A program made the translations under genes and the position numbers. A stretch of 64,000 nt of DNA. It comes from an uncultured Planctomycetota bacterium. Its GTDB lineage: Bacteria; Planctomycetota; SKW154; DAOVDS01. Positions 18,960 to 51,657 of this stretch are shown here, piece after piece. Each line of letters opens with the position of its first letter. Position 1 is the stretch's first letter. Below the pieces are notes generated by a model. It was not told the origin of the DNA, did no database searches, and worked only from the letters and a program-made list of their open reading frames with translations. The DNA is taken from positions 74,556-138,555 of the forward strand of contig CAZXNM010000006.1 of the NCBI GenBank assembly GCA_964641955.1. Reading direction: 5' to 3'.

Positions 18960-20612
18960 TTGAGTAACTTCAGGCAAAAAATCGTTCTTGCTGTACTAGC
19001 GACTTTATACCTTGCGCTCTGCGGGTGTAGCATTCTGGGTTACTCCGGGCAAAGACATCAGCGCAATGTCATTTACGTAGATGGCGAACGAGGAAGTGAC
19101 AGTAATACCGGCAAATCCCGCGAGAATGCCGTCAGTACAATCGGAAAAGGCCTGGAGCTTGCCCGGGACGGTGACACAATCCTCATGGCGGACGGCATTT
19201 ACAGCGGCGAGGGCAATAGGAACCTCGACTTTCGCGGCAAGAAGGTGCGCCTGAAATCCGCCGGGGAACCCAGCAACTGCATAATCGATTCTACGAGAGA
19301 AGGCCGTGCGTTCCTCTTTCACAGCGGCGAGACAAGCAGTTCGGTCCTGGATGGATTCACAATCCGCAATGGATACTTCTTCCTGGGAGGTCCCGAGGAA
19401 TGGGGCGGTGAAGCGGATGCCTTCCGCTTCGGCGGCGGGATACTGATTCTCTACTCCAGCCCCACAATCAGGAACTGCATCATTGAAGGCAATGACTATG
19501 CCGGTATCCACTGCATCCGGGGCAACCCGCATATTGTCAGGTGCACCCTGCGGAACAACGAGGGGCAGTACGGCGGTGGAATCCACATGTGCAGGTCCTG
19601 GCCCGTAATAGAGGATTGCACCATAGTGAGCAACTTCGCCGACGACGGCGGGGGTATCGGCTGCACCCACGACTCGAAGCCGCTTATCAGGAACTGCCTT
19701 ATCGCGCACAATGACGTAAGCTATGGAGGCGCGGGCATTTGCTGTCATGACAGCGCGCCGGCAATATCCGACTGCATCATCACCGGCAACAGGGCCAAAT
19801 GGAGCGACGGCACGAGCGGGGGCGGCATAGAATGCTGGTACTCCAAACCCACAATCACCGGCTGTCTTATCACAAACAACATAGCCATAGGATACGGCAA
19901 AGGCGGGGGAATCTCCTGTGTAAAGAATTCCGACGCGATGATAGACCGGTGCACTCTGCGGGGCAATTCGGCGAACATGGGAGATGCGATTATCTGCGAA
20001 CGCAACTCCTCGGCCAACGTGACGAACTCCCTTATTGTCGGCAACGGATCGCGTTACAGCCAGGGGGCAATCGTAGCAGATGAGAAGTCAAGCCTGACCC
20101 TCACCAACTGCGTCGTGGCTCAGAACGGCGGAGCAGTGCAATGCTGGCAGGGGTCCCGAGCCACCGTTGTCAATTGCACTGTGGCAATGAACACTACCGA
20201 CCAGGTTGGAGGAGGCCTGATGCTCTACGAATCGAGCATGCTCGTCTGCAACACGATAATCTGGGGCAACGAGGCGAAAAAAGGGGGCAATCAGATATCG
20301 ATAGGCGGCGACAAGTCGCAGCTTGTGCTCAAGCATTGCTGTTTCTCAAATGGGAAAGATGACGTCACAGGCAAGGAACCACTCGTGACCGAGAAGTGTC
20401 TCAACGCGAACCCCCTCATGCGGATGTACCCCAGCATTACGACCAGGTACGTTCTCAGGAAGGGCTCTCCCTGCATTGACGCGGGCGGGGACTCGCTTCT
20501 GCCTCCGGGCCTCAAGAAGGACCTGGGCAACAACCCAAGGGTTATTGATGGTGACAAAGACGGCAAGGCGAATGTTGATATCGGCGCTCACGAATACGTT
20601 CCGGCCAAGTAA
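18960..20612 (+). CDS. Secreted lipoprotein with right-handed parallel beta-helix repeats (pectate-lyase-fold, choice-of-anchor-type)
   Basis: TTG start after an AAGGAAG RBS. Lipobox 'LALCGCS'. 'DGDTILMADGIYSGEGNRNLDFRGKKVRLKSAG' then many 'GGGI...C..S.P.I..C' beta-helix rungs. C-terminal 'VDIGAHEY'. Confidence 0.7.
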   Translation: MSNFRQKIVLAVLATLYLALCGCSILGYSGQRHQRNVIYVDGERGSDSNTGKSRENAVSTIGKGLELARDGDTILMADGIYSGEGNRNLDFRGKKVRLKSAGEPSNCIIDSTREGRAFLFHSGETSSSVLDGFTIRNGYFFLGGPEEWGGEADAFRFGGGILILYSSPTIRNCIIEGNDYAGIHCIRGNPHIVRCTLRNNEGQYGGGIHMCRSWPVIEDCTIVSNFADDGGGIGCTHDSKPLIRNCLIAHNDVSYGGAGICCHDSAPAISDCIITGNRAKWSDGTSGGGIECWYSKPTITGCLITNNIAIGYGKGGGISCVKNSDAMIDRCTLRGNSANMGDAIICERNSSANVTNSLIVGNGSRYSQGAIVADEKSSLTLTNCVVAQNGGAVQCWQGSRATVVNCTVAMNTTDQVGGGLMLYESSMLVCNTIIWGNEAKKGGNQISIGGDKSQLVLKHCCFSNGKDDVTGKEPLVTEKCLNANPLMRMYPSITTRYVLRKGSPCIDAGGDSLLPPGLKKDLGNNPRVIDGDKDGKANVDIGAHEYVPAK

Positions 20613-20630
20613 AAGAATGGGGTAGGTGCT

Positions 20631-22301
20631 GTGTCAACCTGCGGGAAGCTGATAGTTCTGTCTGCTGCCTGCGTTCTGTTCTGCGGGTGTGTAACTTCCC
20701 GCCCCGTGACGATTTACGTCAACGGCGCCGCGGGTGACAATGGAGGAGACGGTCTGTCAGAAGCCTGCGCTCTAAAGACAATCCAGCGCGCCCTCAACCT
20801 CGCCGGGGATGGCGACACAATCCTCGTGGCGGACGGCATCTACAGCGGCGAGGGCAACAAGGACCTCGACTTTCGCGGCAAGAAGGTACACTTGAAGTCT
20901 GCCGGCGGGCCTGACAAATGCGTCATAGACTGCGAGAATGACGGCCGCGCATTCCTGTTTCACTGCAACGAGACGAAGGCCAGCGTGGTGGAAGGTTTCA
21001 CCCTCGCAAACGGCAATGTAAACAAGGGCCGCCCAACCACGACATTTGATTTTCTCCCTGATGGGGTCATGCGCGGCGGCGCAGTCCTGTGCATATGCTC
21101 CAGCCCCGCTATCAGAGACTGCACATTCAAGAACAATAGGGCGAACCGGGGCGGCGCTATATACTGTTACAAGTCCAGCCCCTCCGTATCCAACTGCCGC
21201 TTCAGGTCGAACAAAGCCAGTGAAGGTGCCGCCGTTTCCTGCGTGCAGGAATCAAGCGCCGTGATAACACAGTGCCTTGTGACTGAGAACGAGGGACGCA
21301 GCACAGCCATGGTGGCTGGAGGCTACGTTATCCACTGCCGCGGCGGCTCGAATGCCGTCATTACAGGCTGCACAATCGCTCGGAATCAAGGTGCAGGCAT
21401 TTGCAGCGCTGACTCCAGCCTGACAATCTCGGACTGCGAGGTATCAGGGTGCAGAGAAGACGAAGATGACCTCTGGGGTGCCGGAAGCACAAGCGGAATC
21501 GCCCTGAGCGGCGGCAGGACTCAACTGACAAGGTGCAAAGTCACGCACAATAGCGGCTGCGGCATTGCCCATCACGACGGAACCGCCAGGCTGACCGACT
21601 GTGTCGTGTCCAACAACGGCGAACATGGCGTTGAGGCGAGCAAATCCGAGTTGATAGTGAAAGACTGCAGGATAGAAGGTAACAGATACATAGGCGTGGA
21701 TTGCGGGAAATCAAATGTTGAGATTGTCAGCAGTATCGTCACCAACAGTTCTGAGTCTATTGGCATTTCTTTTAGCGATTCCAAGGGAAAAGTCGCCAAT
21801 TCCCTCATAAGCGGCAACAGGGAGCTTGGGATTGAGTGTGCCAATAGCAGTCAGATTGACGTTTTGAATTGCACCATAGCCGGCAACTCAGGGCCCCGCG
21901 GGCTCGGTGTCTGCTGCGGAGGCGACTGCCGGGTTACGGTGACCAATACCATCATCTGGGGCAATGCCGACCCCGAAGAGAATGAAGTCCACGCTGACAG
22001 AGGCGGCTCCCTGACTCTCAAGTACTGCCTTCTCAGAGAGTTTACAGACACCGTTTGGGAGACCAAACCCGGCGCTGGGGTGACACTCAGTGCGTGCCTG
22101 CACGCGGAGCCGCAGTTCCTGGACGCGGCCGGGGGCAACTACAGGCTCAAGCCCGGCTCGCCGGCAATCGATGCCGGGCTTAACTCATTCGCACCTCGGG
22201 GTGTAAAGACCGACCTGGATGGCAAGCCGAGGATTGTTGACAGCAACGGCGATAGCAAGGCGGTCGTTGACATAGGTGCCTACGAATACCACAGACGCTG
22301 A
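20631..22301 (+). CDS. Paralogous secreted beta-helix lipoprotein
   Basis: GTG start. Lipobox 'VLFCGCV'. 'DGDTILVADGIYSGEGNKDLDFRGKKVHLKSAG' is nearly identical to the upstream paralog motif. C-terminal 'VDIGAYEY'. Confidence 0.7.
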   Translation: MSTCGKLIVLSAACVLFCGCVTSRPVTIYVNGAAGDNGGDGLSEACALKTIQRALNLAGDGDTILVADGIYSGEGNKDLDFRGKKVHLKSAGGPDKCVIDCENDGRAFLFHCNETKASVVEGFTLANGNVNKGRPTTTFDFLPDGVMRGGAVLCICSSPAIRDCTFKNNRANRGGAIYCYKSSPSVSNCRFRSNKASEGAAVSCVQESSAVITQCLVTENEGRSTAMVAGGYVIHCRGGSNAVITGCTIARNQGAGICSADSSLTISDCEVSGCREDEDDLWGAGSTSGIALSGGRTQLTRCKVTHNSGCGIAHHDGTARLTDCVVSNNGEHGVEASKSELIVKDCRIEGNRYIGVDCGKSNVEIVSSIVTNSSESIGISFSDSKGKVANSLISGNRELGIECANSSQIDVLNCTIAGNSGPRGLGVCCGGDCRVTVTNTIIWGNADPEENEVHADRGGSLTLKYCLLREFTDTVWETKPGAGVTLSACLHAEPQFLDAAGGNYRLKPGSPAIDAGLNSFAPRGVKTDLDGKPRIVDSNGDSKAVVDIGAYEYHRR

Positions 22302-22372: not shown

Positions 22373-23764
22373 TTATTGCCCACGGGGCGGTGCCGGGGGA
22401 GCGGGAGTGAGGCGCGTGAGGGCGAGGCCGAGGCCGAGGAGCGACCAGAAGATGGGGCTCGATGAGAGAGTCGAGAACGAGAACTGCTGCTGCGCGAGGT
22501 AAGACACGATGGCGACGATTATCGCCATTGCCGCAACCTTTTGATAGCCTTCAAGTTGCGACGACGCCCGCCACATGGTAATCAGGGACACGCCGACCGC
22601 AAGCAGGAAAGGCACGAGCGAGGCGAGGCCGCCTTCGTAGGCAATCTGCAGCAACAGGTTTTCCGGCTTGTCGGGCTTCGTGAACATCCTGCCCTCATAG
22701 CCGAACTCCGCCGGTTTAGGCATTTTTACAAAGCACATGGTGTCCGGCCCCCATCCGAACGCGGGCCGCTTCGCGATAAGCGGCAGGGTGGCGCGCCAGA
22801 TGTAGGTTCGCACACGAATAGTCGAGGAGCTTACCGGACCTTCGCCCGTGCCTTCGACAGCCCGAGCAACAAGCGAAGGCCGTCCGTTTGCAACTGCGGC
22901 CCTGTCAAATCCGATAGCACATGCTGCAAACACCACTGCGAGAGCAATTGCGCGCAAGCGCTGCACCGGCGCCCGCTTCAGGACAAGCACGACCGCGCAG
23001 GCAGTTCCCGCCGCGAGCCCGACCCAGGCACCGCGATGGTAGGTGGCGAGAATGCAGGTGAAGATAAGCCCCGCAACCGGCAGCCAGAGCCACGACACGC
23101 GCTGTTTCCCGCTTCTAGGGTAGAGAACGAAAAAAACGGGGAATGGCAGCACGAGCAGGAGGTAGGCGGCGAGGAAGCCGGGATTGCCGCTCGTCGCAAA
23201 GGCACGCCACCAGTCGAGCCTGACATGGTCTCGCGGCAGTGGGTCGAAGCCGAAGAACTGCAGCAGGCCGTAAACAGAGGCGATGCATGCTCCGAGCACG
23301 AGGCAGGACAGGACATTCTTGAGCTTGTGTTCAGTGTCCACGCAGTTAGAAAACAGAAAGAACGCAGCCGCGTACATGAGAAAGGCAAGGAATCCCTCGG
23401 AGCGGAACTGGCGGCCCCAGAAGGCCGTATCGGGCCAGGGAGACAGGGCCGTGGCGATGCTCAGAGATACGATGAAAGCTGCCACATAGAGAAAGACGGG
23501 GCTGAATTTCAGCAGATGGCGCTTTTCGGCAAGCATGCGCAGAAGCCAGAAGGCAGCCACAAAGCAGACAAGATAGAGCGCGATGGTCAGCTTGGGCTTG
23601 TAGTAAAAATCGTCAAAGAGACCCTCGAACTCTGCGCCTTTCGGCGAATACGCAAGCGGGACAAACGCGACGAAGAAGCAGAGGATAATCGTCAGCGCGC
23701 GTTCGGGGAATCGTATTAAGTCTGTAATACACGACTTTGCAGGCTGATTGTCGGTTTCTTCCAT
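22373..23764 (-). CDS. O-antigen ligase / Wzy_C-like polytopic membrane protein. Candidate pilin O-oligosaccharyltransferase (PglL/PilO-like) by context.
   Basis: ~12 hydrophobic TM segments with a large loop containing 'YHRGAWVGLAAG'. Position directly downstream of three pilin-like genes in the same orientation. Confidence 0.55.
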   Translation of the reverse strand: MEETDNQPAKSCITDLIRFPERALTIILCFFVAFVPLAYSPKGAEFEGLFDDFYYKPKLTIALYLVCFVAAFWLLRMLAEKRHLLKFSPVFLYVAAFIVSLSIATALSPWPDTAFWGRQFRSEGFLAFLMYAAAFFLFSNCVDTEHKLKNVLSCLVLGACIASVYGLLQFFGFDPLPRDHVRLDWWRAFATSGNPGFLAAYLLLVLPFPVFFVLYPRSGKQRVSWLWLPVAGLIFTCILATYHRGAWVGLAAGTACAVVLVLKRAPVQRLRAIALAVVFAACAIGFDRAAVANGRPSLVARAVEGTGEGPVSSSTIRVRTYIWRATLPLIAKRPAFGWGPDTMCFVKMPKPAEFGYEGRMFTKPDKPENLLLQIAYEGGLASLVPFLLAVGVSLITMWRASSQLEGYQKVAAMAIIVAIVSYLAQQQFSFSTLSSSPIFWSLLGLGLALTRLTPAPPAPPRGQ

Positions 23765-23833
23765 AACGGCAGGAGATGATAGAAGAAGGGATACGGGCTT
23801 TCAAGCTCGTATCCCCTTTATTTCGCACTCGTG

Positions 23834-24307
23834 CTACTTGGTTGACCTGTTGCTGGCGTTGCTGACGAAGATGCACTCTGGATTGTACTGAACGGTATCT
23901 GAGGCTGGGACATCGACATCTTCCGTCTGTGATGCCCCGATACTCCAGACTGCATACGTCGGTATATCGCCCGGGTTTACAGGCGCGAGATACTCGTACT
24001 GGTACGGAGGAGGATTCTTCGGGTCAGTGGTAGGCTGGTATGGGTCGCCCGGCCTTTCATCGAAGACGCGGGGACTCATCGCCAGCAGGGCTCCAACCCA
24101 GTCGCCGGAATCATCCGGGAAAGTGTTGTATTTAATGTAATACTGCCCGAGGGCCGCCTGTATCAGGCGTATGTCAGCCCTGACCTTCTTATTCTTCGTT
24201 TCCACCGTCACGCCGATAACCGAGGCGAGCACGATTGTTACCAGAATGCCGATGATGGCCAGCACCAGCAGCATTTCAACCAGTGTGAAGCCGCTGTTTC
24301 TCTCCAC
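23834..24307 (-). CDS. Prepilin-type N-terminal cleavage/methylation domain protein (GspG-like pseudopilin/pilin)
   Basis: GTG start with a GGAGG RBS. 'SGFTLVEMLLVLAIIGILVTIVLA' is a class III signal (G^FTLxE). C-terminal 'PPYQYEY'. Confidence 0.75.
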   Translation of the reverse strand: MERNSGFTLVEMLLVLAIIGILVTIVLASVIGVTVETKNKKVRADIRLIQAALGQYYIKYNTFPDDSGDWVGALLAMSPRVFDERPGDPYQPTTDPKNPPPYQYEYLAPVNPGDIPTYAVWSIGASQTEDVDVPASDTVQYNPECIFVSNASNRSTK

Positions 24308-24353
24308 TACTTCCTCCTTCTTCAGGAAGGTTCTCTGATTTCCCCGACCCCGC

Positions 24354-24842
24354 TTACGGCGAAACAGTCTTGCAGTTGCTCACGTACAGCTCAGCACCGC
24401 TCGCATCGGCAAGGTCATCAAACGGAACGCTGGGCGCCACCGCAGGCCCCTTGTCAGAGGAAATAATATAGAACTTCCCGCTGGCGCTGAGCGCGTAGTT
24501 ATACGTGTCCTTATCGCCTACACCAGTGAGCTCATAGGGGTCCGCCGGGAACGAGTCAATGAACCGGCTGTAAATTTCCGGTGCCGGACTCCCGGCCGGG
24601 GAGATAATGTAGCTGGCCGAAGTGCCCCAGGCGCCTGGCGAGCCGCCTTCTGGAGGATAGACCCCGAAGGCAATATAATAAACTTCAATAGCGCTCTTGA
24701 GAGTTCTCAGGTCGGCCTTGGCCGCCCTCATCTTGGCACCCTCGCCTACACCGCCAACCGACGGCAGTAGAATCGCCACCAGGAAGCCTATAATGGCGAC
24801 CACCAGCAGCATCTCAATCAGCGTAAAACCTTTCTCGCCCAT
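24354..24842 (-). CDS. Prepilin-type protein (GspG-like major pseudopilin/pilin)
   Basis: 'MGEKGFTLIEMLLVVAIIGFLVAILLPSV', then 'AKADLRTLKSAIEVYYIAFGVYPP' typical of GspG. Preceded (upstream, 24870-25114) by a ~245-bp AT-rich leader. Confidence 0.75.
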   Translation of the reverse strand: MGEKGFTLIEMLLVVAIIGFLVAILLPSVGGVGEGAKMRAAKADLRTLKSAIEVYYIAFGVYPPEGGSPGAWGTSASYIISPAGSPAPEIYSRFIDSFPADPYELTGVGDKDTYNYALSASGKFYIISSDKGPAVAPSVPFDDLADASGAELYVSNCKTVSP

Positions 24843-25114
24843 GTTCAAGCTCCTTTCTACCTGTACCAAACGCTCGAAAAGCCAATAACCAAATTAGTCC
24901 CCGAGCACCTCCCTTCATGATGTCGAAGGCATACGATGAGATTATACTGTCGCTACGTCCAATAGCATCTGTAACTATATCGTCATCTTGCGGAAAGTCA
25001 AGTCTTTATGCAAATTTGTGCAGAAGAAATCTTAAAAATTCCCTTTTATGCACTCAGGTTTCACGCACAAGACTCCGTGATGCAGGAAGAGGAGGTAAAA
25101 GGTCACTATCCAGA

Positions 25115-25492
25115 TTAATAGTCTTCACAGCCGGGTGTCTGCGAACGGACCTCGCCCGTGATGGGGTTGTAGACGTACTTCATGCCGAATGGGTCGCGTG
25201 GAGAGCCTGAGCTGTCCGTGCCGGGCACGATGAGAGTCATATTCCCGCCCAGACCCTTTTTCATGGCCTGTTGAAGCGTGGCCGGGTATGTAAGATTGTG
25301 GGCGTAAAAAAAATCGACCGTGCTGCGTATCTTGCCGAGTTCGGTCTTGAGCGCGAGTTCCTTCGCTTCCCTGCCGAAGCCGTAGAATCCGACAATGCAG
25401 AAAATGCCCAGGAATATTACGACGAGGATAACAAGCGTGAGTTCGTGAAGATTCTGGGAAACCAATGCGAACCCTCTCTCCGAGCTACCCAA
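25115..25492 (-). CDS. GspG-like pseudopilin with atypical N-terminus
   Basis: C-terminal 'DPFGMKYVYNPITGEV' matches the GspG 'DPWGxPYxY' motif. The N-terminus is 'RGFALVSQNLHELTLVILVVIFLGIFCIVGF' (G-F at cleavage position but polar SQNLHE before the hydrophobic core). Overlaps the gspF/pilC stop by 8 nt. Confidence 0.5.
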   Translation of the reverse strand: MGSSERGFALVSQNLHELTLVILVVIFLGIFCIVGFYGFGREAKELALKTELGKIRSTVDFFYAHNLTYPATLQQAMKKGLGGNMTLIVPGTDSSGSPRDPFGMKYVYNPITGEVRSQTPGCEDY

Positions 25493-26702
25493 TATTTTCG
25501 ACCACCGATATCATATTGAATATCGGCAGGAACAGGGAGAGGGCTATAATCGCAACCACGAAAGCGAGAAAAACAAGCAGAATCGGCTCAATTATCTTGG
25601 GCAGGGCCTTGCTCAGGTGGTCAATCTGCTGCTCGTATGAATCGCCCACGAAGCCGAGCATGTTGTCGAGCTGGCCGGTCTCTTCCCCGACGGCAACCAT
25701 CTGGGTCAGCATGGGCTCGAATTCGGGATGATCGCGCAAGGCCGACCCTATAGTGCGCCCGCCCTGGACTTCGTGCGACACGTCCGCTATCGCCCGCGTA
25801 TAGACCTCGTTGGTCATGGTCTCCCTTATTATCTGGAGCGCGGACACAACCGCCACTCCGCTCCGAGCCATAATCTCGAGGGAACGGGCGAAACGGACGG
25901 CGGCGACCTTCCTGATAAACTGGCTTATAATCGGCAGGCGCAGCTTGAAGCGGTCGATTGCGAGGCGTCCCGGCGGCGTGCGCTTGAGCAGGATGTAAAG
26001 GGCGACAAGACCTACCACAGCGGCAATGAGGATGTACCAGTAGTCTGTAACGAGAGTGCTCAAGGCAAACATGAACCTGGTGATGCCGGGAAGCTCTACC
26101 TTGGCGCGCTCGTATACCTTCTTGAACTCAGGAAGAACTCCCGTAAGCAGGAAGATAGATACGCCGAAGGCTATGCACAGGACGATTGCCGGGTACATGA
26201 GACTTGATATAACGGCGGAGCGCAGGGAGTCTTCCCACTCGATAAAATTCGCCATGCGGTCGAGCACTTCTTCGAGATTACCCGTCTCTTCCCCCACCTT
26301 GACGTTGGAGACATACAGCTTCGAGAACACCCGGGGGTGCCTGGCGAGCGCCTGAGTGAATGAAGAGCCTTCGTTCAGGTCGAGACGAACCTCCCGCAGC
26401 ACCTTGCACAGGGCGGGGTCGTCGGTCTGCTGGATGAGAACATCAAGGCCCGAAAGCAGGGGCAGGCCCGCCCGGACCATCGTGGCGAGCTGCCGCGTGA
26501 ACATGGTGAGCTGCCGGCGGCGCACGCCCCTCAGCCGGGAGACGTAGGATCCCCTCGCTCCCGTGGAATGGGGCTTGATTGACGTGGCATAGTAGCCGCT
26601 CTGCGCCAGACGCTGCGCCACGGACTTCTCGTCCGCCGCTTCGAGCATGCCCTCCACCTGCTCGCCGAGCGCATCTCTCGCCGTGTAAGTGTACTTGGGC
26701 AC
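25485..26702 (-). CDS. gspF: Type II secretion / type IV pilus inner-membrane platform protein (GspF/PilC family)
   Basis: GTG start 1 nt after the gspE stop. Two GspF repeats with 3 TM helices; 'KPHSTGARGSYVSRLRGVRRRQLTMFTRQLATMVRAGLPLL' is typical T2SSF. Could equally be called pilC. Confidence 0.85.
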   Translation of the reverse strand: MPKYTYTARDALGEQVEGMLEAADEKSVAQRLAQSGYYATSIKPHSTGARGSYVSRLRGVRRRQLTMFTRQLATMVRAGLPLLSGLDVLIQQTDDPALCKVLREVRLDLNEGSSFTQALARHPRVFSKLYVSNVKVGEETGNLEEVLDRMANFIEWEDSLRSAVISSLMYPAIVLCIAFGVSIFLLTGVLPEFKKVYERAKVELPGITRFMFALSTLVTDYWYILIAAVVGLVALYILLKRTPPGRLAIDRFKLRLPIISQFIRKVAAVRFARSLEIMARSGVAVVSALQIIRETMTNEVYTRAIADVSHEVQGGRTIGSALRDHPEFEPMLTQMVAVGEETGQLDNMLGFVGDSYEQQIDHLSKALPKIIEPILLVFLAFVVAIIALSLFLPIFNMISVVENIG

Positions 26703-28431: not shown

Positions 28432-29040
28432 CTACGCGCGCCCGACCCTGCCGGCAAATCTGTTCACTTCTTCCAGAAGGTCGTTCAGCTCGAAAGGCTT
28501 CGTCATGTAAAGGTCCGCGCCTGCCTTGGTACCTGCCTCCCTCGATTCCCTGTCCACCTTTCCCGTGAGCATGATAATGGGTATCTTCCTGTAGCGCTCG
28601 TCGAACTTGAGCAGCCGGCAGACGTGGTATCCCGTGAGGCCCGGGACCATTATATCCAGAATGATGAGCGCGGGCCTGACCTTGCGCGCCATCTCAAGGG
28701 CCTGGAGCCCGTCGTATATGGCCAGAACGTTATAGCCCCGCCCTTCGAGCTTGAGTTTCAGGCTGTCAGCCGTATCGAGGTCGTCCTCGACGATGAGAAT
28801 CACATTTTCGGGCGAGACTGCGGAATCCTCGGCTTCGCCGGTATCAGGGGCGAGCGGTGGACTCTCTTCGGATTGCGCGCCGGAATCGCCTTCGGTTTGC
28901 TCTTTGCTCTCCGGCTCTTTGCCTGCGGCGTCGGGTTTGTCTTCAATACTCACGCGGGTAGCACCGAGTCCTGTTAAAAAGCCTGTTCCCCGGGCAGTAC
29001 CCGCTCCCTCGCGGAGCGCGCGCCCGCCGTTTTCTATCAA
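28432..29040 (-). CDS. Single-domain (CheY-like) response regulator with ~70-aa acidic/low-complexity N-terminal extension. The exact start is uncertain.
   Basis: REC motifs 'VILIVEDDLDTADSL', 'ILDIMVPGLTGY', 'IIMLTGKVD...K'. The ORF-track start is TTG at 29040, overlapping the kinase stop by 4 nt. No output domain. Confidence 0.7.
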   Translation of the reverse strand: MIENGGRALREGAGTARGTGFLTGLGATRVSIEDKPDAAGKEPESKEQTEGDSGAQSEESPPLAPDTGEAEDSAVSPENVILIVEDDLDTADSLKLKLEGRGYNVLAIYDGLQALEMARKVRPALIILDIMVPGLTGYHVCRLLKFDERYRKIPIIMLTGKVDRESREAGTKAGADLYMTKPFELNDLLEEVNRFAGRVGRA

Positions 29041-30275
29041 CTGCGAGCCCGCAACGGCAGAGTGAAGAAGAAGGTGCTGCCCTTGCCCGGCTCGCTCTCG
29101 GCCCAGATGCGCCCGCCGTGCAGCTCTACAATCCTCTTTGAGATGGCAAGGCCGAGGCCCTGCCCGGACTCTTCCTGGGCCTCGTCGGAGCGGTACAGCC
29201 GCTCGAATATGAGTTCGACCTCTTCCGAGGAAATTCCCTGCCCCCCGTCCGCAACGGAAAATTCGACCTCGTTCTCGCCCGCCTTGGCCGCTATCACAAG
29301 CTCGCTGGATTGCCCGCTGAACTTGATGCCGTTTCGCAGCAGGTTCACCAGCACCTGCTCTATCTTGGCCTTGTCAGCCCGTATTTCAGGCAGGTCCTCC
29401 GGAACATCAACCTTGATTTCAAGGTTTTTCTCCTCCGTCCAGACCTCGACCGAACGCAGGGCGTTCTGCACCAGCTCGGAAGCCTTGACTTCTTCGAGCG
29501 TCAGTTCGCGCTCGCTTGTGGAACGCAATTCCTCGAGATACAGGAGCATCTTGTCCGCCTGCTCCTTCATGCGCTGCAGGCGCTCCTTGATTTTATCAGG
29601 CACTTCCCCGAGGTCGCCGTCGAGCATGTTCGTGAGGTAATTCTTGATGGCAGTCGCGGGCGTGTTCAGCTCGTGGCAAAGTTCCGCCAGCCACATCCCG
29701 TGGCTTCTCGACTGCTCCGTGAGCTGCTGGTTCCTGTTCATCAGCGTGCCGCAGAGTCTCGCGTTCTGCAGCGCCGCCGCGCAGTAGCGCGCGAAAGTCA
29801 CCGCAATTCTCAGGTCCTGCTGCCTGAATTCCGGCATGTCCCCGTCCATCATGCGGTTGAGATTGAGCACACCGACCACGGTATCGTTTATCTTCATGGG
29901 AACGCAGACGGAACTTCTTATATCGGTGCGCCCCTCGAGCGCGGAAAACTGCGGGTTGTCCTCGAGCTTGCCGTGCAGTATCACAGGAATCTTCTGGTCC
30001 GCCACCCAGCCGGCGATGCGCTCGCCCATCTTCAGGGTCGTCTTCTCCTCGAACTCCTTCTCTATGCGCACGGCCCGGTTGATTGAGAGCTTCTTCGACT
30101 TGCGGTCAACGAGCATAACCGACCCGCCGTCCGCATCGACAAGCTGCATCGCGAGCGTGAGTATCTGCTTGACCACGTCTTCGATGTTCAGACTCAGGTA
30201 AAGCTTCCTGGTAAGCTCCAGAAGCAGTGGCATTTTCTCGGCTGCAACGAAGTGTTTCTTGCCACGCTCGGCCAT
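29037..30275 (-). CDS. Sensor histidine kinase, cytoplasmic, GAF domain + HisKA + HATPase_c
   Basis: ATG at 30275 with a GGAGAGAG RBS. GAF-like 'ILTLAMQLVDADGGSVMLVD'. H-box 'LAELCHELNTPATAIKNY'. N/G boxes 'LVNLLRNGIKFS', 'VADGGQGIS', 'GQGLGLAISKRIVELHGG'. No TM segment. Confidence 0.8.
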   Translation of the reverse strand: MAERGKKHFVAAEKMPLLLELTRKLYLSLNIEDVVKQILTLAMQLVDADGGSVMLVDRKSKKLSINRAVRIEKEFEEKTTLKMGERIAGWVADQKIPVILHGKLEDNPQFSALEGRTDIRSSVCVPMKINDTVVGVLNLNRMMDGDMPEFRQQDLRIAVTFARYCAAALQNARLCGTLMNRNQQLTEQSRSHGMWLAELCHELNTPATAIKNYLTNMLDGDLGEVPDKIKERLQRMKEQADKMLLYLEELRSTSERELTLEEVKASELVQNALRSVEVWTEEKNLEIKVDVPEDLPEIRADKAKIEQVLVNLLRNGIKFSGQSSELVIAAKAGENEVEFSVADGGQGISSEEVELIFERLYRSDEAQEESGQGLGLAISKRIVELHGGRIWAESEPGKGSTFFFTLPLRARS

Positions 30276-30389
30276 TTTAACTCTCTCCTGTTCTCTGTCC
30301 CTGTTCCCGCAGGCCTCGCTTGCGCAGTCCACCTCTGCGCCGCGCGCACCCCTTCTATAAGGTAACTCTGCGCCAAGGCGCGAGTTTCG

Positions 30390-31156: not shown

Positions 31157-31186
31157 TTGGCTTTAGCAGCCCGCATGAGGTATAAT
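31157..31186 (+). promoter_or_regulatory. Candidate sigma70-type promoter for the paralog array: -35 TTGGCT (31157-31162), 18-nt spacer, -10 TATAAT (31181-31186)
   Basis: Read directly from the sequence in the 160-bp divergent intergenic region. Followed by a GGGAG RBS and the ATG at 31219. Confidence 0.35.
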
Positions 31187-31218
31187 TGGTTATGCATAAG
31201 TCTGGGCGGGAGAAAACG

Positions 31219-33528
31219 ATGAAACGGCTGATTCTGGCTTGCGTGACTGTCATGCTTGCGGCGCCCGCGCTCTACGCGCAGGAGTCGCTTGATGAGATTG
31301 TCGCGAAGCTCAATAAGGCCAACTACGCAACCGCGATGAAGATGTTCCCCGAACTCGAGAAACGCAAGCTCCTCGGCGTCTCGGAAGAACCGGTCGAAGG
31401 GAAGGAGCGGAAAGTCCTGAAGTTCTTTTTCCGCTTGCCTCTGTCGGACAAGGCAATGGCGCTTTATTACTGCTACAATCTCAAGACGGGCGTACCGGAT
31501 GTTCGCGAGCTTGCCGCACGCAGCCTTCGACCCTACCCCGACCTCATCGCCGAGACCATTGACGAGCTCGTCCTTGAGAAGAGCACGGACAATTTCGACA
31601 AGGCTGCCGCGGCGCTGCTCTCGGTCGCTGATATCGAGATGCACGAAGCGATCCCGGTGTCGTACGCGCTGTACTGGCAACACGGCGAGAAAACAGCGTT
31701 CTGCAGGCTCACCGGGAAGCAGCATGCGATGATGGTTACGGCGAAGGCGGCCCTGCACCCGGGGAGCGACGAAGCGAGCGAGGAGCTGCGCCGGAGCGTC
31801 GTCCTGTACAAGTCTCTCGGGATTGGGAAAGAGTTCTCCGAGACCCTGAAAGCAAGGATTTCAGCCGCAGCGGGTGCTGAGTCAGGTGACGATTTCCGCC
31901 CTGCCCTCGCGTTCGTCGGCGACGACTTCGCATCACTTGCGGCCACGGTGCTCGATGCCGAATCTCCGAAATTACCGAGGAAGTCCGCGGTGCACTACCT
32001 TGTCTCCTCCTGCAAAGCCGAAGCTGCCAAGAGCCTTCGCGGCGCGATTGCGAAGATGGAGGAAGGCGAGATTCTGACATACGCATTATCGGCGGTGAGC
32101 GTCGTCAAAAAGGAAAAGGACCTTGGGAGATACCGTGCAATGGCACTCGACCTGCTCAAGGATGGAAAGGTCGCCAAGGAGCCGAAGCTCTGGATGCTGC
32201 ACTATCTCGGAGAGCACGGAATCTGGGAAGATGTCCCACAGATAGTCGAGGTCATGGATTCTCTCAGAGACGTTCAATTGCGTAAAAACGCGTTCCTGGC
32301 TCTGGAACGAATATCACGCCAGCTCGACAACAAGCAGGATGCCGAACTGGCGCTGTCAGTTTACCGGAAGCTGGGCGCGGCGGCAGAAGACTGGGTGGTC
32401 AAATTCCTTGTCGAACGCCCGACTCGCATTTCCCACAAGGTTATCTCGGACGCTGCAGCAAGAGAGAAGAACGGGGGCTACAAGGCTTTCTACGAAACCC
32501 TCGCCCAGAAAGTTCTTCAGGCATGCGTGCTTGCAGAAGAGTACGGCGGAGTAGCAGTCATCGCGCACCTAAGATGGCTACACTTGCACCAGGACAGGCC
32601 CAGCGGCATGTGGGATTCCGACGGCTTCGACAAGAACTGTGATACACGGAGTGCCCCGAAGTGTACGGGCGCGGGGGCGGCTGACTGCGACCTTGTAGTC
32701 ACTTCCCTGGCAACCCTGCGATTCCTGGAGCGCAACTGGACGCACACCACGGGACTGTTCAAGAAGACTATTCGCCTCGGCCTGTTGTGGCTGATAAGAC
32801 ACCAGAAAGACGACGGGCAGGTGGAAATCAGCGGCGGGGCAGACCCGATAGAAGCGCATGCAATTGCGACGAAGAATCTCTGTCAGGCCTACGCCATGAC
32901 GCAGCAGTTACGGGATAAGGCCGAGAAGGCAGCCAAATTCCTGCGTTCGAAGCAGTGTGAAGACGGGGGCTGGAAGAAGAGCGATGAGTCCGAATCGTCC
33001 GATGTCGTAACCACGGCGTGGGCCGTGATGGCGCTGAGACAGGCCAAAGACGCCGGTCTCGAAGTGCCGGACGAGACTTTTGGGAAAGCGCTGAAATACC
33101 TCGACTCGCTCTCGCTCGCCGCGCCGAAGGCGAGAGCCGGTTTCGTGAAGGTCCCATACCTGAAGGCTGTCGCAGCCGCTGCAACGGCCAGCTTCCTGTG
33201 CGGGCGTGGCAAGGACGACGAGAGGCTCGCCAAGCTGATTGACATTCTCGACAAGAACCATCCCAGGTGGAACGGTCCCGGTGGACCTGTCTACTGGTAT
33301 TTCGGCACCTGCGCCATGTCTCTCTATGGCGGGGAAAAGCTGGATAAGTGGGCTAATGCTCTCAAACAGACAATCCGGGGAGAAAGAAGGGTAGGCACGT
33401 GCGCCAACGGCTCGTGGAACCCCGTCGGGCTGGATGGGAGAAGGCTGGGGCGAGTCGGCATGACCGCGCTGGTCAAGCTCGCCATCCTGAGACTGTGGAA
33501 AGACGGCAAGGCCGAAGAACCCAAATAG
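31219..33528 (+). CDS. Secreted two-domain protein, paralog A: signal peptide, ~450-aa alpha-helical N-region, C-terminal alpha/alpha-toroid (prenyltransferase / squalene-oxidase-repeat-like) domain
   Basis: Signal peptide 'MKRLILACVTVMLAAPALYAQE'. Conserved N-motif 'LDEIVAKLNKANYATAMKMFPELEKRKLLGV'. C-domain with 'WLHLHQDRPSGMWDSDGFDKNCD', QW-type motif 'LRSKQCEDGGWKK', 'VVTTAWAVMALRQAKDAGLEVP', 'CANGSWNPVGLDGRRLGRVGMTAL'. Confidence 0.65.
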   Translation: MKRLILACVTVMLAAPALYAQESLDEIVAKLNKANYATAMKMFPELEKRKLLGVSEEPVEGKERKVLKFFFRLPLSDKAMALYYCYNLKTGVPDVRELAARSLRPYPDLIAETIDELVLEKSTDNFDKAAAALLSVADIEMHEAIPVSYALYWQHGEKTAFCRLTGKQHAMMVTAKAALHPGSDEASEELRRSVVLYKSLGIGKEFSETLKARISAAAGAESGDDFRPALAFVGDDFASLAATVLDAESPKLPRKSAVHYLVSSCKAEAAKSLRGAIAKMEEGEILTYALSAVSVVKKEKDLGRYRAMALDLLKDGKVAKEPKLWMLHYLGEHGIWEDVPQIVEVMDSLRDVQLRKNAFLALERISRQLDNKQDAELALSVYRKLGAAAEDWVVKFLVERPTRISHKVISDAAAREKNGGYKAFYETLAQKVLQACVLAEEYGGVAVIAHLRWLHLHQDRPSGMWDSDGFDKNCDTRSAPKCTGAGAADCDLVVTSLATLRFLERNWTHTTGLFKKTIRLGLLWLIRHQKDDGQVEISGGADPIEAHAIATKNLCQAYAMTQQLRDKAEKAAKFLRSKQCEDGGWKKSDESESSDVVTTAWAVMALRQAKDAGLEVPDETFGKALKYLDSLSLAAPKARAGFVKVPYLKAVAAAATASFLCGRGKDDERLAKLIDILDKNHPRWNGPGGPVYWYFGTCAMSLYGGEKLDKWANALKQTIRGERRVGTCANGSWNPVGLDGRRLGRVGMTALVKLAILRLWKDGKAEEPK

Positions 33529-33556: not shown

Positions 33557-35917
33557 ATGAGACGCGTACTTCTGGTTCCCGTGTTTGCCTGCCTGTGTTG
33601 CACAGCCGCGCTGGCGCAGGAGCCGCTCGACGAAATCGTGGAGAAGCTCAATAAGGCCGACCGCGCCACCGCGATGAAAATGTTCCCCGACCTCGAAAAA
33701 CGCCTTCTCATCGGTGTCGAGGACAAGCGGGTTCTCATAGATGGCAAGCTCAAGAAGATGACTCATATCTTCTTCAACCTGCCCGTGTCCGGGGGAGTCA
33801 AGCTCCTTTACTACTGCCGCGTGCTCAAGACAGGCAGCCAGGATGCGCGCACGCTTGCCGCGGACTACCTCAAGTCACACCCCCTGCTTGTCGCGGACAC
33901 ACTGGAAGAGCTGACTGGAGACAAAGACGCGGGCGGCTTCGACCTCGCGGCGGAAATCCTGCTGGGCTTCGCCGACGTCCGCGCGCACGAGGATTCGCCC
34001 TCGGGCTTCGCGCTCTGCTGGGATGTCCGGGACGAGACTGCGTTCGTCCTGCTGGATAAAAAAACTTTCGCGCTTACAGTCACCTCGCCCGCGGCGCTGC
34101 AGGACCTTCACGGCGCCCGCCACTCGGCCCGCGAAGGGCTCCGGCGGGATGTCCTGCGGAACAGGGCGCACAAGAAGGAAAAGGAGTTCGTCGAGGTTCT
34201 GAAAATGCGACTCAACGGCGCGCGGGAGAAATCAGCCTGGAACGACTTCCGCCTCGCGCTGGCCTTCGTCGAGGATGACCTGGACACTCTCGAAAAAGTC
34301 GTGCTCGACAAGGACTCGGCAGCGTACCTGAAGGAACTGGCACTCCGATACCTCCAGTCTTCCGGGAAACCGGAAGTCACGGACAGGCTGCGCTCGCTGC
34401 TCCCGAAAATCGAGAACCCGGAAACCCAGGGGCTCGCGCTTTCGGCTTTCGGCGAGGCCGCAAGGAGTCACTGCACGCGCGAGAAAAACGCCGAGACAGC
34501 CCTCGACATGCTCAAGGACACAAAGGCAAACAAGAAAGTCAGGTCGTGGGCGCGCGAGTTTTTCGCCCTGAACGCCCGATGGGAACAGGTCAGGAAGCTG
34601 GGCAGGGCAATCGACACTTTCAAGGACGAAGAGCTGCTCAAGCAGGTTCTCTCGACCCTGCACAACGCGGCGCACGAACTCGGCCCCGAGCAGAAGGCCG
34701 ACCTCTCGCTCGACGTCTACGAGAAGCTCGACGAGAAAGGCCTGGCATGGGTGAAGGAACTTCTCGGCGACAAGGTGGAGAGGCGCTTCGCCCAGCGTCT
34801 TTACGACAGGGCCAACGAGGAGACGGATGAACGCAAGAAACGCACATTTCGTAAACTGGCGCTCAAGGTTACCAACTGGTACCAGTCGGCCGAAGAAGGG
34901 CAACATGCGACTGCTGCCGAGAAACCCGAGCCGAAGACTCTCAGGTGGCTGTACCGGCATCAGGATTACAGCGGCAGATGGAACGCCGCCAGCTTCCCGG
35001 CCAACTGCGACGTCGATAAGGGCGCCCGCTGCGACGGCCGGGGCGGCCCCGGCTATGATATCACCGTGAGTTCCCTGTCCCTCCTGGCCCTGCTCGATGA
35101 AGGGAACACGCATAAAGAGGGGCCATTCCAGCGGGCCGTAGTGCGGGGCATGGAGTGGGTCTACAGCCAGCGGCACGACTCGGGCTTTTTGGGCACGGAG
35201 GCTTATGCGCGCTCAACCGAGCATCACGCGCTTGCAGCGCTGGCTTTCTGCCGCGCCTACCGCGCCACCGGGGACAACGTACTCAGGGAACCCGCCGCCA
35301 GGGCGGTGGAGTTCCTGCTCACACAGCAAGCGGGCGAAGGCGGCTGGAAGAGCAGCCGCAAGGCGGCCCGGCCCAGCGTTCTCACTACCCTCTGGGCCGT
35401 GCTCGCGCTCAAAGCGGCGAAGGAGGCGAGCCTGGAAGTACCCGAATCAAGCTTCAAGAAGGCGCTTGCCTTTTTCGATTTGTGCCGGTTCGAGCGGCAG
35501 AAGGCGAAGGCAGGCTTTTTCCAGGCAGACAGGCTGCAGGCTGTCGCGGCGGCGGCTCTCGGCAGCATGACGTGCGGACGCCCCGCCGCGGATGAGCGCA
35601 TCGCCAAGCTCGTCGAGATTCTTGAGAAGGAACCTCCGAAATGGGATGACGGGCACGGACCCGTCTACTGGTACCTCAGCAGCCGGGCCATGTACATGTA
35701 CGGAAACGAGGCGAAATGGAAGAAATGGGCCGGCGCCGTGAGGGAGATGCTGGCGCCTAAGCGGCGCGAGGGCGGCTGCGCGGACGGCTCGTGGGACCCG
35801 GTAGGCCCCGACGCTTCGAGCCTCGGGCGCATCGGCGCGACCGCGTTCAATCAGCTTACAATCAGACTCTCGCAAAGATACATAGAAGGCAAATCCGAAA
35901 AGGAAGGACGGGAGTAA
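33557..35917 (+). CDS. Secreted two-domain protein, paralog B (same architecture)
   Basis: GAAGGAG RBS 7 nt before the ATG at 33557. 'LDEIVEKLNKADRATAMKMFPDLEKRLLIGV', 'LRWLYRHQDYSGRWNAASFPANCD', 'LLTQQAGEGGWKSS', 'VLTTLWAVLALKAAKEASLEVP', 'CADGSWDPVGPDASSLGRIGATAF'. Confidence 0.65.
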   Translation: MRRVLLVPVFACLCCTAALAQEPLDEIVEKLNKADRATAMKMFPDLEKRLLIGVEDKRVLIDGKLKKMTHIFFNLPVSGGVKLLYYCRVLKTGSQDARTLAADYLKSHPLLVADTLEELTGDKDAGGFDLAAEILLGFADVRAHEDSPSGFALCWDVRDETAFVLLDKKTFALTVTSPAALQDLHGARHSAREGLRRDVLRNRAHKKEKEFVEVLKMRLNGAREKSAWNDFRLALAFVEDDLDTLEKVVLDKDSAAYLKELALRYLQSSGKPEVTDRLRSLLPKIENPETQGLALSAFGEAARSHCTREKNAETALDMLKDTKANKKVRSWAREFFALNARWEQVRKLGRAIDTFKDEELLKQVLSTLHNAAHELGPEQKADLSLDVYEKLDEKGLAWVKELLGDKVERRFAQRLYDRANEETDERKKRTFRKLALKVTNWYQSAEEGQHATAAEKPEPKTLRWLYRHQDYSGRWNAASFPANCDVDKGARCDGRGGPGYDITVSSLSLLALLDEGNTHKEGPFQRAVVRGMEWVYSQRHDSGFLGTEAYARSTEHHALAALAFCRAYRATGDNVLREPAARAVEFLLTQQAGEGGWKSSRKAARPSVLTTLWAVLALKAAKEASLEVPESSFKKALAFFDLCRFERQKAKAGFFQADRLQAVAAAALGSMTCGRPAADERIAKLVEILEKEPPKWDDGHGPVYWYLSSRAMYMYGNEAKWKKWAGAVREMLAPKRREGGCADGSWDPVGPDASSLGRIGATAFNQLTIRLSQRYIEGKSEKEGRE

Positions 35918-44792: not shown

Positions 44793-47700
44793 TCAATTAT
44801 CCTTTGCTCTCTGCCATAGAAAGGGATTGAAGGATTTCAACTCGCCCTGCTCTATAAGTCTGAGAAATCTTGGAAGGTCTATGTATTCATCAATTCTGGT
44901 CACTAAGTCTGGTCCATAATCTGAAATAGTCTCAAGTAGTTGCTGTTTCACGTCGTCTGGCGACAGCGTAGCATTATGCACTGCGGCACTCAGGAGAATA
45001 GAGAACTCAGCAAAGCGTAAGATCTGCTCTTCTCTCGAACTTCCTTCCTCTAAACGTCCAACCCACGACATCAAGTAAGCAGAGAGTTGCGTGTTCGGTA
45101 CAACATAGACCTCGTCACGCACTACAACTACTGATTCTCCAGACAAACCATCAATCTTGACGTTTTTTCTGGGCACAAAAATATCAGTAATGGACCTAGT
45201 AATGCCGCTGCCAAGATAACCCCTTCGTTCGAAAATGTCATCCATGAGTTCGCGCTTGAAAAGAGACTTAATTTCCACCCAACGCGGCGACTCACTCACT
45301 AATTCCCATTTTAGGTCGGCACGCCTTTGACTCTTATAGACATTAATCTGGGCAACCTCTTTCCCTTTGAGGGCCGACCAGTAGAATCTCTTGCTGTTTG
45401 TATTCCAGCATACTACGGGAGCACGAGGAAGCTCTTTGATATCATGACCAAGCGCTGTTATGAGATGTGAAAGAGAGACTGGCCCTCGGACCTCTCGGAG
45501 AATTCTCTCAGCGTGCTCAAAAAGAGCACAACACGTAGTCCAGCATTCTTTAAATGCTCGCACATCGGCAACTGATAACACTCGCCTTTCACTTCCCTGC
45601 TCAACTAGTAGTACGGGAATAGAAAACAAGGACTCATAGAATAACTTATCATCTTGTGATTGAGCATGACCACGGCCTCTATACCCAAGAAGTGGATTAA
45701 TGAGGAAGACTGCCTCTTCCGCGGCCCAAGTCAAAGGTAGATCTCTCTCATTGTAAATTGCCTCCACTTCCGAACTAACGTGGTCACTAAATATAGAGTA
45801 TATTACTTCCAGCATTGTTTGGCGTTCTGGAGTCTCTTCTAGCCCTGAGCGCACAACATTTGTTCGTGGAGCCGATGGACCTTTGAGGTTGCATATAGCA
45901 ACTATTGACTTTCCGTTGAACCCAGGCGTATCAAATTCTATTCTTACGCCTTCAATGCAAACACCCAGGCTTACAGCATTTGATCTCTCGCGACTGACTC
46001 TCTCAAAGTCTAAGAAGCTCCACTCTTTGAAAACATCGGACCATCTGAGTGCGTAGGCCAATGTTACGCAATCCTTTCGCACTTCTTTAATTTTGACACT
46101 GTCTTCGTCCGATATGCCAAGGTCATTCAAAACCTGCCGAAGAGCCTCCTTGGGAGAAGAAAACCCTATCGTGACAGGCGTCTGTTGGTCAACTATCAGC
46201 GTTACTTCACACCCCGGCACAACAACCCATTTTCTAAGAGCTTCAGCGATGTCTGGTATCTTCGCACTTGGCCTGATGTGGAGTCTCACGGATGTCCCAT
46301 GAGGAAGTAGGCTCCTCATATCAGAGTCCGATGTTTTGTCAAGGTGTCGGAGAAGGTACTTTCCATGAACGGAACGAAGAGCCAATGAGATACCCTTCTG
46401 CTCTTCTTCGACGAAGGTTGCTATTTCTACTTTGTCCGCAACCATGAAAGTAGTTAGGATCCCAATCCCAAACCGACTGATAGGAGAAAACTCCGGAAAA
46501 TCCTCTTTAAATCTCTTTTCTTGATACCTTGAGGCACCTATCTTCAACAAATGGTTCTCGACTATCTCTCGAGACATACCAGTTCCATTGTCCGAGACTG
46601 TCAATACGCGGTCTTCACCATTCCAGTGTATTTCCACTTTTCCCGAACTCTCATCACGGTGGCCACGTTTTTCGATAAGATTTTGGAGTCTTATGGCATC
46701 CAATGAATTTTGAACGAGTTCGCGAAGTACGACAGAGGTATCATTGTATAGGGTGTGCCCAGTCAACAGGTCGAGTATCTTGGCTTGGTCCAGAGTGAAC
46801 TCAAACTGGTTTGGCAGAAAACCCTCTGCTTCAACATGGCTGTCGTCAATAAAGCGCCACGGGAATTCATGCCCCATTCCTGTCCTGCGTTTGGTCTGTT
46901 CACACCAAGTGTGACACCGAGAGATTTCGCTCCTCACATATGTTAGGTAGGTTGTTAGGCCAAAGAACCCCGTCTCATCCGTGAAATAAGCTTGTACTTC
47001 AATAGTGTCCCGGTGTGCCGCTTGGTCAGGTATACCTTCCTTGTTGAAACCGATCTTACTTCTAACGGTAGTTACTCCTTTTTGCCTGGCCCATTCCTCT
47101 TGGCTCTTGGGATCAGACAAACTGATGAGACGAAACTCCGTAGAAGGCGTCCTATCGGAAGTCATGTGCAGAAGGTCGGCAGCCCTAAGGAGAACTGCGA
47201 CATACTGGAGATTCACCGTCTCCTGATTGCTGTCTCCGTAAGCTCGGGATGGCATATACTTCTCAATGTTATCCAAATCATTCAGGTGGTGACTCTCACA
47301 TAACATGCCCAGATCTCGCCGGAATTGTTGCGGCAAAGGATTGAGGAGGTCATCAACCACAGAGATAGCATCGTGCGCGACACCTAGAAAGTCTGACTGA
47401 GCCCCAAGTACCCAGGCCTTGGCTCGAGTGGGATGAGAGCGACGTACAAACTCTTGATAGAGAAATCGTTCTCTGTCCTCATCCTTCATTCTGTCCAAGC
47501 TTGCCTTATAGTCTATCGCCTCATCTCCGTTGTGAAGCACTTCTTCCCTGAATTGTATGTAACCGATGCAGCTATTTCGTGACTCGTATTCTTTCGTAGT
47601 TACTAACATTCCAACATCATGAAAGTAGATAGCCAATACAGTTATAAGCCAATCTGCTGGACTGATTATCTCTTTAGTTCTGTCCGGCACTAACCATTCG

Positions 47701-51533: not shown

Positions 51534-51574
51534 GATATAAGTGAATAATTCTCGTTCAGACTGATAAGACAGGG

Positions 51575-51607: not shown

Positions 51608-51657
51608 AACAGGTTCGTCTTGGGGCTCATACAATCCAGTTTTAACCGGGAGTAGAG

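Follow-up and report, generated by a model that had tools for sequence, protein, structure and literature searches.

We examined a window of 64,000 nucleotides (64 kb) from an uncultured Planctomycetota bacterium (contig CAZXNM010000006.1, positions 74,556 to 138,555 of the forward strand), in which a gene for a polytopic membrane protein of the Wzy_C family lies directly behind two pilin genes. From sequence comparisons, we predict with moderate confidence that its product is a pilin-directed O-glycan transferase, whose gene closes a type IV pilus-like module. This prediction is supported by the preserved, clade-specific place of the gene in the operon, by a start codon that follows closely behind a conserved hairpin in the pilin transcript and by a protein size like that of the pilin-linked enzymes TfpO and TfpM. 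An earlier note on this DNA had proposed such a pilin O-glycosyltransferase; the Wzy_C profile match, the pilin order in six loci and the TfpO/TfpM-like size agree with that proposal, whereas the missing catalytic His, the missing PglL_A domain and the presence of relatives in glycan-synthesis clusters speak against it. The features on which the argument turns are the following:

22373..23764, minus strand: Wzy_C-family membrane enzyme with 12 transmembrane (TM) helices, 463 amino acids (aa), matching Pfam PF04932
23776..23815, minus strand: hairpin resembling a terminator, with a U-rich tract, located in the gap that separates the pilin B and Wzy_C genes and conserved in six loci
23834..24307, minus strand: pilin B, a prepilin of 157 aa with a GspG-like domain (matches N_methyl with 31.8 and T2SSG with 30.3 bits, each over its cut-off)
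24354..24842, minus strand: pilin A, a prepilin of 162 aa (N_methyl 29.3 bits, above cut-off; GspG model 55 bits, below cut-off)

A Wzy_C-family protein encoded behind paired pilins

The protein belongs to the Wzy_C superfamily and has a WaaL-like GT-C fold, as is apparent from its PF04932 match, its 12 TM helices, the long periplasmic loop before TM10 and a conserved pair of Arg residues. The hidden Markov model search for Wzy_C that the earlier note had suggested was positive, with PF04932 scoring 60.3 bits, where 31.7 is the gathering threshold (E 2.4e-16, residues 231-386), which bears out the description of this open reading frame (ORF) as encoding a 463-aa polytopic Wzy_C protein. An AlphaFold model built from a ten-sequence alignment (pLDDT 74, pTM 0.80) displays the 12 helices and a loop of about 90 residues (293-382) between TM9 and TM10, and it stops after TM12 without a C-terminal periplasmic domain. 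The string YHRGAWVGLAAGTACAVV, which had been quoted as part of the large loop, is indeed in the protein, but it opens TM8, and the conserved Arg244 lies within it (in the string YHRGAWVG). When the model was compared with the PDB by Foldseek, the sole strong match was the WaaL O-antigen ligase (7tpg_B, E 2.8e-4, probability 1.00, TM-score 0.52/0.58); sequence searches of the PDB with the single protein or with a 10-sequence profile gave no match.

Close homologs of this protein are rare: there are only nine among 5.8 billion proteins, and in a representative library of 1.84 billion the clade amounts to one 50% representative, beyond which the next match falls from 770 to 402 bits. The comparison of gene contexts covers six loci, namely five homologs and the window (P0005, a sixth homolog of at least 54% identity on a 2-kb contig, was left out), along with five more distant relatives. 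The contexts are given below, where Glu-type and His-type refer to the residue at position 368 of the window protein:

P0002, P0003, P0004, P0006 and P0007, 54-61% identity: directly 3′ of two N_methyl pilin genes (loci L003, L004, L005, L006/L007 and L008)
P0008, 48% identity: adjoins a Wzz/GNVR tyrosine-kinase co-polymerase, a GT2 gene and a Wzy_C-TPR protein (L001)
P0009, 49% identity: with Wzx, GT2, a methyltransferase and a pseudaminic-acid-type set of NeuB, DegT, CTP_transf_3 and epimerase (L002)
P0016, the closest other Glu-type relative, 29% identity: no pilin upstream, on a 3.9-kb contig that excludes the downstream side
P0010, His-type, 27% identity: among Firmicute-like housekeeping genes
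P0126-like protein of L018, 26% identity: among housekeeping genes

Pilin adjacency is seen in all five examined homologs of at least 54% identity and in none of the five more distant relatives (P0008, P0009, L018, P0016 and P0010); it is restricted to one sub-clade and occurs there more than chance would give. Two of the loci, L004 and L005, preserve the order T2SSE-T2SSF-116aa-pilin-pilin-Wzy_C in full. Because the order on the pilin side is kept while the genes downstream vary, the conserved block ends exactly at the Wzy_C gene: beyond it, the window has convergent beta-helix lipoproteins, L003 an ankyrin gene followed by a GAF-sigma54 activator, L004 a 108-aa gene followed by the same activator and L006 a lipoprotein. 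A further scan of genome contigs returned two loci, both already in the set and one of them labeled as an uncultured Planctomycetota bacterium, and a scan of metagenomes returned four, three of which duplicate known contexts; the glycan-cluster contexts of P0008 and P0009 were found again in a second metagenome (L017 and L016).

The beta-helix lipoproteins (18960..22301) were considered as a part of the system and rejected, as they are convergent and as unrelated genes stand in their place in L003, L004 and L006. It had earlier been suggested that they could interact with glycans; nothing ties them to the module, and they are not kept at the other loci. They are tandem paralogs (18960..20612 and 20631..22301, plus strand) with DUF1565, Beta_helix, NosD and choice-of-anchor Q matches, both with CGC lipobox-like signal peptides, and converge on the Wzy_C gene. 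The GAF-sigma54 enhancer-binding protein (L003 2895-4418; L004 6190-6783) has no homolog in the window by tblastn.

The hairpin and the pilins

In the hairpin, a stem (GGGATACGAGC/GCCCGTATCCC at 23788..23815) is followed by the U-rich tract, with a folding energy of -24.9 kcal/mol (z = -3.6). All six loci keep its sequence, which is much more conserved than the DNA on either side, and a search for it as a dispersed repeat found a single occurrence in the window. Most changes in the stem lead to G-U pairs, and pairing is therefore preserved in the sense-strand RNA only; one of the 13 pairs is compensatory and two are broken, in one sequence each. The Wzy_C start codons of all orthologs align about 22 nucleotides (nt) 3′ of the hairpin, a gap too short for an independent long leader of this gene. 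The same DNA can equally be read as a promoter-like site (TTGCAT-17-TATTAT or TTGAAA-17-TATCAT). For P0002, P0006 and P0007, the annotation extends the N-terminus through the hairpin (L004 4282.., L005 4147.. and L006 546..); since the ortholog starts align after it, these extensions are probably start-codon miscalls, and the real starts match the ATG at 23764.

Upstream of pilin A, a second conserved stretch contains a further element:

24974..25001, minus strand: sigma-70-like promoter TTGACT-16-TATAGT, upstream of pilin A, within a block kept in four loci

The blocks are common to the window (24843..25060, minus strand), L004 (2930-3325), L005 (2760-3155) and L013 (9980-10370). They comprise a GCAAATTTGC palindrome and then the promoter-like site ACTTGACTTT-N16/17-TATA(G/T)T, with TTGACT as the -35 element. 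In the 5′ untranslated region (UTR) of pilin A, an invariant ATTGGACGTAGCGAC stands right after the -10 element, followed by GAAGGGAGGTGCT and by the Shine-Dalgarno sequence GGTAGAAAGGAG. The conserved 5′ UTR yielded no consensus fold, and the upstream blocks may be binding sites for a regulator or for a CsrA-type protein. A riboswitch or other known RNA near the pilin genes was considered and rejected, with no Rfam match at gathering or at E <= 1. By-eye inspection upstream of pilin A found no sigma54 promoter with correct spacing, no tool-based search for one having been made. Taken with the hairpin, this layout points to a strong pilin A-pilin B unit under its own promoter that would end at an attenuating terminator. 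As the Wzy_C gene starts so closely behind that terminator, read-through from the pilins would probably supply the enzyme in small amounts.

The two GspG-like pilin genes lie upstream in the same orientation and at short distances, as had been described before, with gaps of 46 nt between pilin A and pilin B and of 69 nt between pilin B and the Wzy_C gene, all on the same strand. The ORF of pilin A runs to a TTG at 24869 (24354..24869); its true start is probably the ATG at 24842, which gives the 162-aa protein beginning MGEKGFTLIEM and the same length as the gene call in L011. Pilin A has the leader MGEKG/FTLIEM and the tail ...YVSNCKTVSP, and pilin B has the leader MERNSG/FTLVEM, a conserved C-terminal strand C-I-F-V-S-N-A and the tail SNRSTK. 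Across both paralogs the terminal strand reads C-I-[F/Y]-V-[S/T]-N-A, the Asn being invariant in 11 sequences, and is followed by a variable tail of 3-8 residues. The dipeptide [S/T]-[P/K/D] forms the extreme C-terminus in five of six pilin B and three of five pilin A sequences, which places the Ser/Thr in the penultimate position. The stretch PTTDPKNPPPYQYEY ('PTTDPKNPP') was rejected as a conserved acceptor: it had been cited as a Ser/Thr/Pro-rich C-terminal stretch, but it lies mid-protein, at residues 96-110 of the 157 of pilin B, as a loop insertion found in the window pilin B alone.

An active site with glutamate for histidine

A 162-sequence family profile aligned Escherichia coli WaaL with the window protein, which a 10-sequence profile and hhalign could not do. 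In this alignment R244 corresponds to WaaL R215, R319 to R288 and E368 to H338. An Arg occupies the R244 position in 158 and the R319 position in 160 of the 162 rows of the family alignment. The conserved residues of the periplasmic face include these two Arg and the motif D365-K-P-E368-N369; where the family at large has D-K-A-H-N-x-Y-L-Q, the window clade has D-K-P-E-N instead. Glu at 368 is unvarying in the clade, whose nine members make up the Glu-type sequences together with the distant P0016 and P0126, and these two share the other periplasmic motifs of the clade (DD-F-Y-Y-x-P-K, R-D-x-x-R-x-x-W-W, G-W-G and Q-x-F-S-F). Wzy-type polymerase families of clan GT-C1 have Asp/Glu at the position of the O-ligase His, and this residue has been proposed to activate the acceptor in the polymerases (Meitil et al. 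2024, PMC10920833). Given this precedent within the same clan, Glu368 is plausibly catalytic.

We posit a mechanism in which a glycan would be assembled on undecaprenyl-pyrophosphate elsewhere in the genome and flipped to the periplasmic face, where R244 and R319 would hold the pyrophosphate, as in WaaL. E368, in the usual place of the His, would serve as the catalytic base and activate the hydroxyl of the acceptor. That hydroxyl would belong to a Ser/Thr of the adjoining pilins, most plausibly one in the variable tail after the V-[S/T]-N-A strand.

Several observations weigh against a pilin-directed transferase. At position 368, 149 of 160 relatives have His and 11 have Glu, and every tested ligase or O-oligosaccharyltransferase (O-OTase) of the Wzy_C kind requires the His: it is essential in WaaL (H338) and PglL (H349) (PMC3643930), in PglS (H324; PMC12800693) and in TfpM (H286; PMC9829042). 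The Glu at 368 is thus the state of the polymerases and not that of the ligases or O-OTases. The active-site loop is poorly modeled (pLDDT <50 for 335-379), and neither PglL_A (PF15864) nor Wzy_C_2 is matched even at E <= 10. On the side of the acceptor, the last pilin residue is K, P, N or D and never Ser/Thr, whereas the substrates of TfpO/TfpM terminate in Ser/Thr itself and residues added after the Ser are reported to block glycosylation by TfpO (PMC9829042); a Ser/Thr within a tail of 4-8 residues is also not unlikely by chance. The six loci come from one narrow lineage, such that part of the synteny may be inheritance. The nearest relatives outside the pilin-linked group are found in Wzx/Wzz/GT2/pseudaminic-acid-type clusters without adjoining pilins. 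Between pilin-linked and cluster-linked members there are nine fixed differences, three of them in periplasmic loops; the periplasmic face is almost identical, which argues that the type of acceptor is unchanged. Finally, a scan of some 40 ORFs throughout the window found no genes for lipopolysaccharide (LPS), O-antigen, Wzx, Wzz, phosphoglycosyl transferases or other glycosyltransferases, and this lack of glycan-synthesis genes is a further point against the prediction.

These points lend some weight to a different function, which we regard as possible but unlikely, namely that the protein is a Wzy-type polymerase or ligase for a surface polysaccharide (O-antigen, capsule or exopolysaccharide) that acts on a sugar or lipid acceptor rather than on a pilin. 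Its place in the operon would then reflect co-regulation of pilus and glycan or a gene order inherited in a narrow lineage. Consistent with this are the Glu at the acceptor-activating position, as in the BP-Pol families of clan GT-C1, the Wzz- or Wzx-type clusters around P0008 and P0009, the almost unchanged periplasmic face in both contexts and the narrowness of the clade. The top NCBIfam models point the same way, for they are sub-threshold IctB (TIGR00947, the top-scoring named model, with 85.9 bits against a cut-off of 366.4 over residues 60-423) and the sub-threshold RfaL equivalog (32.8 bits against 277), with no O-OTase. However, the absence of Wzx, Wzz, phosphoglycosyl transferase and glycosyltransferase genes from the scanned ORFs counts against a polymerase too and in that regard favors the pilin-directed transferase, and the place after pilin B is held in six loci while the flank beyond is rearranged in at least three ways, with the start codon kept at its short distance behind the hairpin of the pilin transcript. 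The L001 cluster, moreover, already has a second protein, the Wzy_C-TPR protein, as a possible polymerase. The earlier note had named an O-antigen cluster around the gene in related genomes as an observation that would tell against pilin glycosylation: a Wzx/Wzz-type glycan cluster is absent at the window and the pilin-linked loci and present for the 48-49% relatives, so that this objection applies in part. The two Glu-type relatives in question, P0008 and P0009 (L001 10001-11395 and L002 10001-11296), are 85% identical and sit in two different glycan clusters from the same samples. Polymerases are usually specific for their repeat unit and highly divergent, and this degree of identity across two clusters is easier to explain for a transferase of relaxed glycan specificity than for a repeat-unit-specific polymerase.

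Two other functions are far less probable than this. One is that of a true WaaL, which would join undecaprenyl-pyrophosphate-linked O-antigen to the lipid A-core, the pilin adjacency being incidental; we hold it to be very improbable. WaaL is the top structural match, both pyrophosphate-binding Arg are kept and the 12-TM topology is shared, but the catalytic His is replaced by Glu368, the RfaL score is far under its cut-off, no LPS core or O-antigen genes are nearby among the scanned ORFs and the operon place behind the pilins is conserved. The other, which we find very doubtful indeed, is an IctB-like or otherwise non-glycosyltransferase role, as a pilus-biogenesis accessory or a transporter in which transferase activity was lost with the catalytic His. 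It would fit the rank of IctB as the highest named model, aligned over almost the full length, the Joint Genome Institute (JGI) label 'putative inorganic carbon transporter' on some homologs and the loss of the His. Against it, the IctB score is far under the cut-off; all conserved residues, including both Arg and D-K-P-E-N, lie on the periplasmic face in the pattern of an active GT-C enzyme and not of decay; and in related families a Glu/Asp at the same site is catalytically functional.

The pilus module, known systems and implications

The genes upstream of the pilins complete a type IV pilus-like module, which has prepilins with G/F-T-L-x-E leaders, a PilB-type ATPase and a PilC-type platform protein:

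29037..30332, minus strand: GAF-domain histidine kinase (HATPase_c, GAF and HisKA matches), in the same order in L011 and L013
28432..29040, minus strand: response regulator with a receiver domain alone, at the head of the module (Response_reg E 6.6e-24), in the same order in L011 and L013
26704..28392, minus strand: PilB/GspE assembly ATPase with an N-terminal MshEN domain (T2SSE E 2.3e-134; MshEN, PF05157, E 5.5e-21)
25485..26702, minus strand: PilC/GspF platform protein (T2SSF E 2e-58; GspF and PilC models 347-381 bits)
25115..25465, minus strand: 116-aa pilin-like protein (weak T2SSG match, E 0.0015; 116-aa gene call in L011)

The ATPase scores 610 bits with the PilB and 600 bits with the GspE model, both slightly below their cut-offs. 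Its MshEN domain is of the type that binds cyclic di-GMP (the dedicated NCBIfam motif model gives 28.6 bits against a cut-off of 38), and the pilus may be under the control of this nucleotide. The 116-aa protein has an N-terminal hydrophobic helix (M-x-S-Q/E-x-L-x-E) without a prepilin cleavage leader, has its gene invariably between those of PilC and pilin A and forms 20 clusters in all among the 5.8 billion proteins. Among the ORFs scanned in the window there is no prepilin peptidase, secretin or PilMNO; these may be encoded at other sites of the genome.

The interval from the pilus module to lexA contains two plus-strand genes (31186..33528 and 35791..38304) for proteins of 780 and 837 aa with weak, sub-threshold matches to squalene-hopene-cyclase-type repeats; in L013, lexA directly adjoins the module. 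Farther along, in an island of low GC content (0.47-0.51, compared with about 0.58 outside it), lies a gene for a protein of 1037 aa that has HD-CE and HATPase_c_3 domains (44793..47906, minus strand); this gene may be horizontally acquired and defense-like. A Bat/MoxR-type operon (50046..58452, plus strand) encodes DUF4159, an FHA-AAA_3 MoxR ATPase, DUF58, BatA-VWA and a GATase1-like protein.

Pilin-adjacent Wzy_C enzymes are known already, in the form of TfpO, TfpM, PglS and many PglL. TfpO (PilO; Pseudomonas aeruginosa 1244 and Acinetobacter) and TfpM (Moraxellaceae) are, like the window protein, polytopic Wzy_C proteins of 420-470 aa without an extra C-terminal periplasmic domain (440-470 aa for TfpO and 420-440 aa for TfpM, as opposed to about 520-620 aa for PglL/PglS; PMC9829042). 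Their genes, like the one studied here, lie directly downstream of one or more pilin genes on the same strand, and their pilins likewise have a short C-terminal tail that bears Ser/Thr. In contrast to TfpM, the window protein has Glu in place of the essential H286; the window pilins, too, are distinct in being GspG-like, in being two, in having no disulfide loop and in ending in [S/T]-[P/K/D]. Outside the Wzy_C core there is no detected similarity to TfpO/TfpM, and the lineage here is uncultured. With PglL (Neisseria) and PglS (Acinetobacter baylyi) the Wzy_C core is shared, and their genes, too, are often near pilins: among 31 predicted PglL-type O-OTases, 21 have a gene that adjoins the pilin target (PMC3643930). 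The window protein, however, lacks PglL_A, an equivalent of His349/His324 and a C-terminal periplasmic domain, and with 463 aa it is shorter than their 520-620.

Of the enzymes that act on other acceptors, WaaL (GT121; Cupriavidus metallidurans, PDB 7TPG/7TPJ, and E. coli), the gene of which as a rule belongs to an LPS core locus, has His313 and His338, respectively, where Glu368 stands here, and the window gene lies outside any LPS locus, in a conserved operon with pilins, with RfaL far under its cut-off. With the Wzy-type polymerases the window protein has its structural clan, GT-C1, and the Asp/Glu position in common; in contrast to their genes, the window gene is fixed behind pilins without Wzx, Wzz or glycosyltransferase neighbors, as is also the case in the five pilin-linked homologs, and its family is otherwise 'O-antigen-ligase-like' and of the His type. 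IctB is the best named model, but the gap between score and cut-off is such that the window protein is not a member of that family. In sum, the fold, the Arg pair, the size and the synteny are those of the known pilin-modifying enzymes, whereas the His, PglL_A and a terminal Ser/Thr in the substrate are missing; the protein should therefore not be counted among the TfpO, TfpM, PglS or PglL families, and it may work like them. What sets it apart is the unvarying His-to-Glu change, the pairing with two GspG-like pilins that have [S/T]-P tails, its relatedness to enzymes from Wzx-type clusters and the uncultured lineage. A narrower proposal, which we advance tentatively, is that it represents a fifth O-OTase class after PglL, PglS, TfpO and TfpM, that is, a Glu-type Wzy_C enzyme recruited from Wzx-dependent clusters into a pilus operon, which would use Glu as the base and modify a sub-terminal Ser/Thr of GspG-like pilins.

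PglL, PglS, TfpO and TfpM are the main tools of bacterial O-glycoengineering and are used for bioconjugate vaccines; if the window enzyme is active on a pilin, it would provide an extra sequon/enzyme pair for this purpose. A full-text search of the literature yielded no publication that deals with pilin glycosylation in Planctomycetota, and such activity would be a first indication of it in a lineage related to them. Should the protein be a polymerase instead, the conserved operon would point to a coupling of pilus and surface polysaccharide. Activity on a pilin, on the other hand, would mean that the catalytic base is interchangeable between the ligase/oligosaccharyltransferase and polymerase types within the same fold, and the clade would form a natural link from the Wzy polymerases to the O-OTases that act on proteins.

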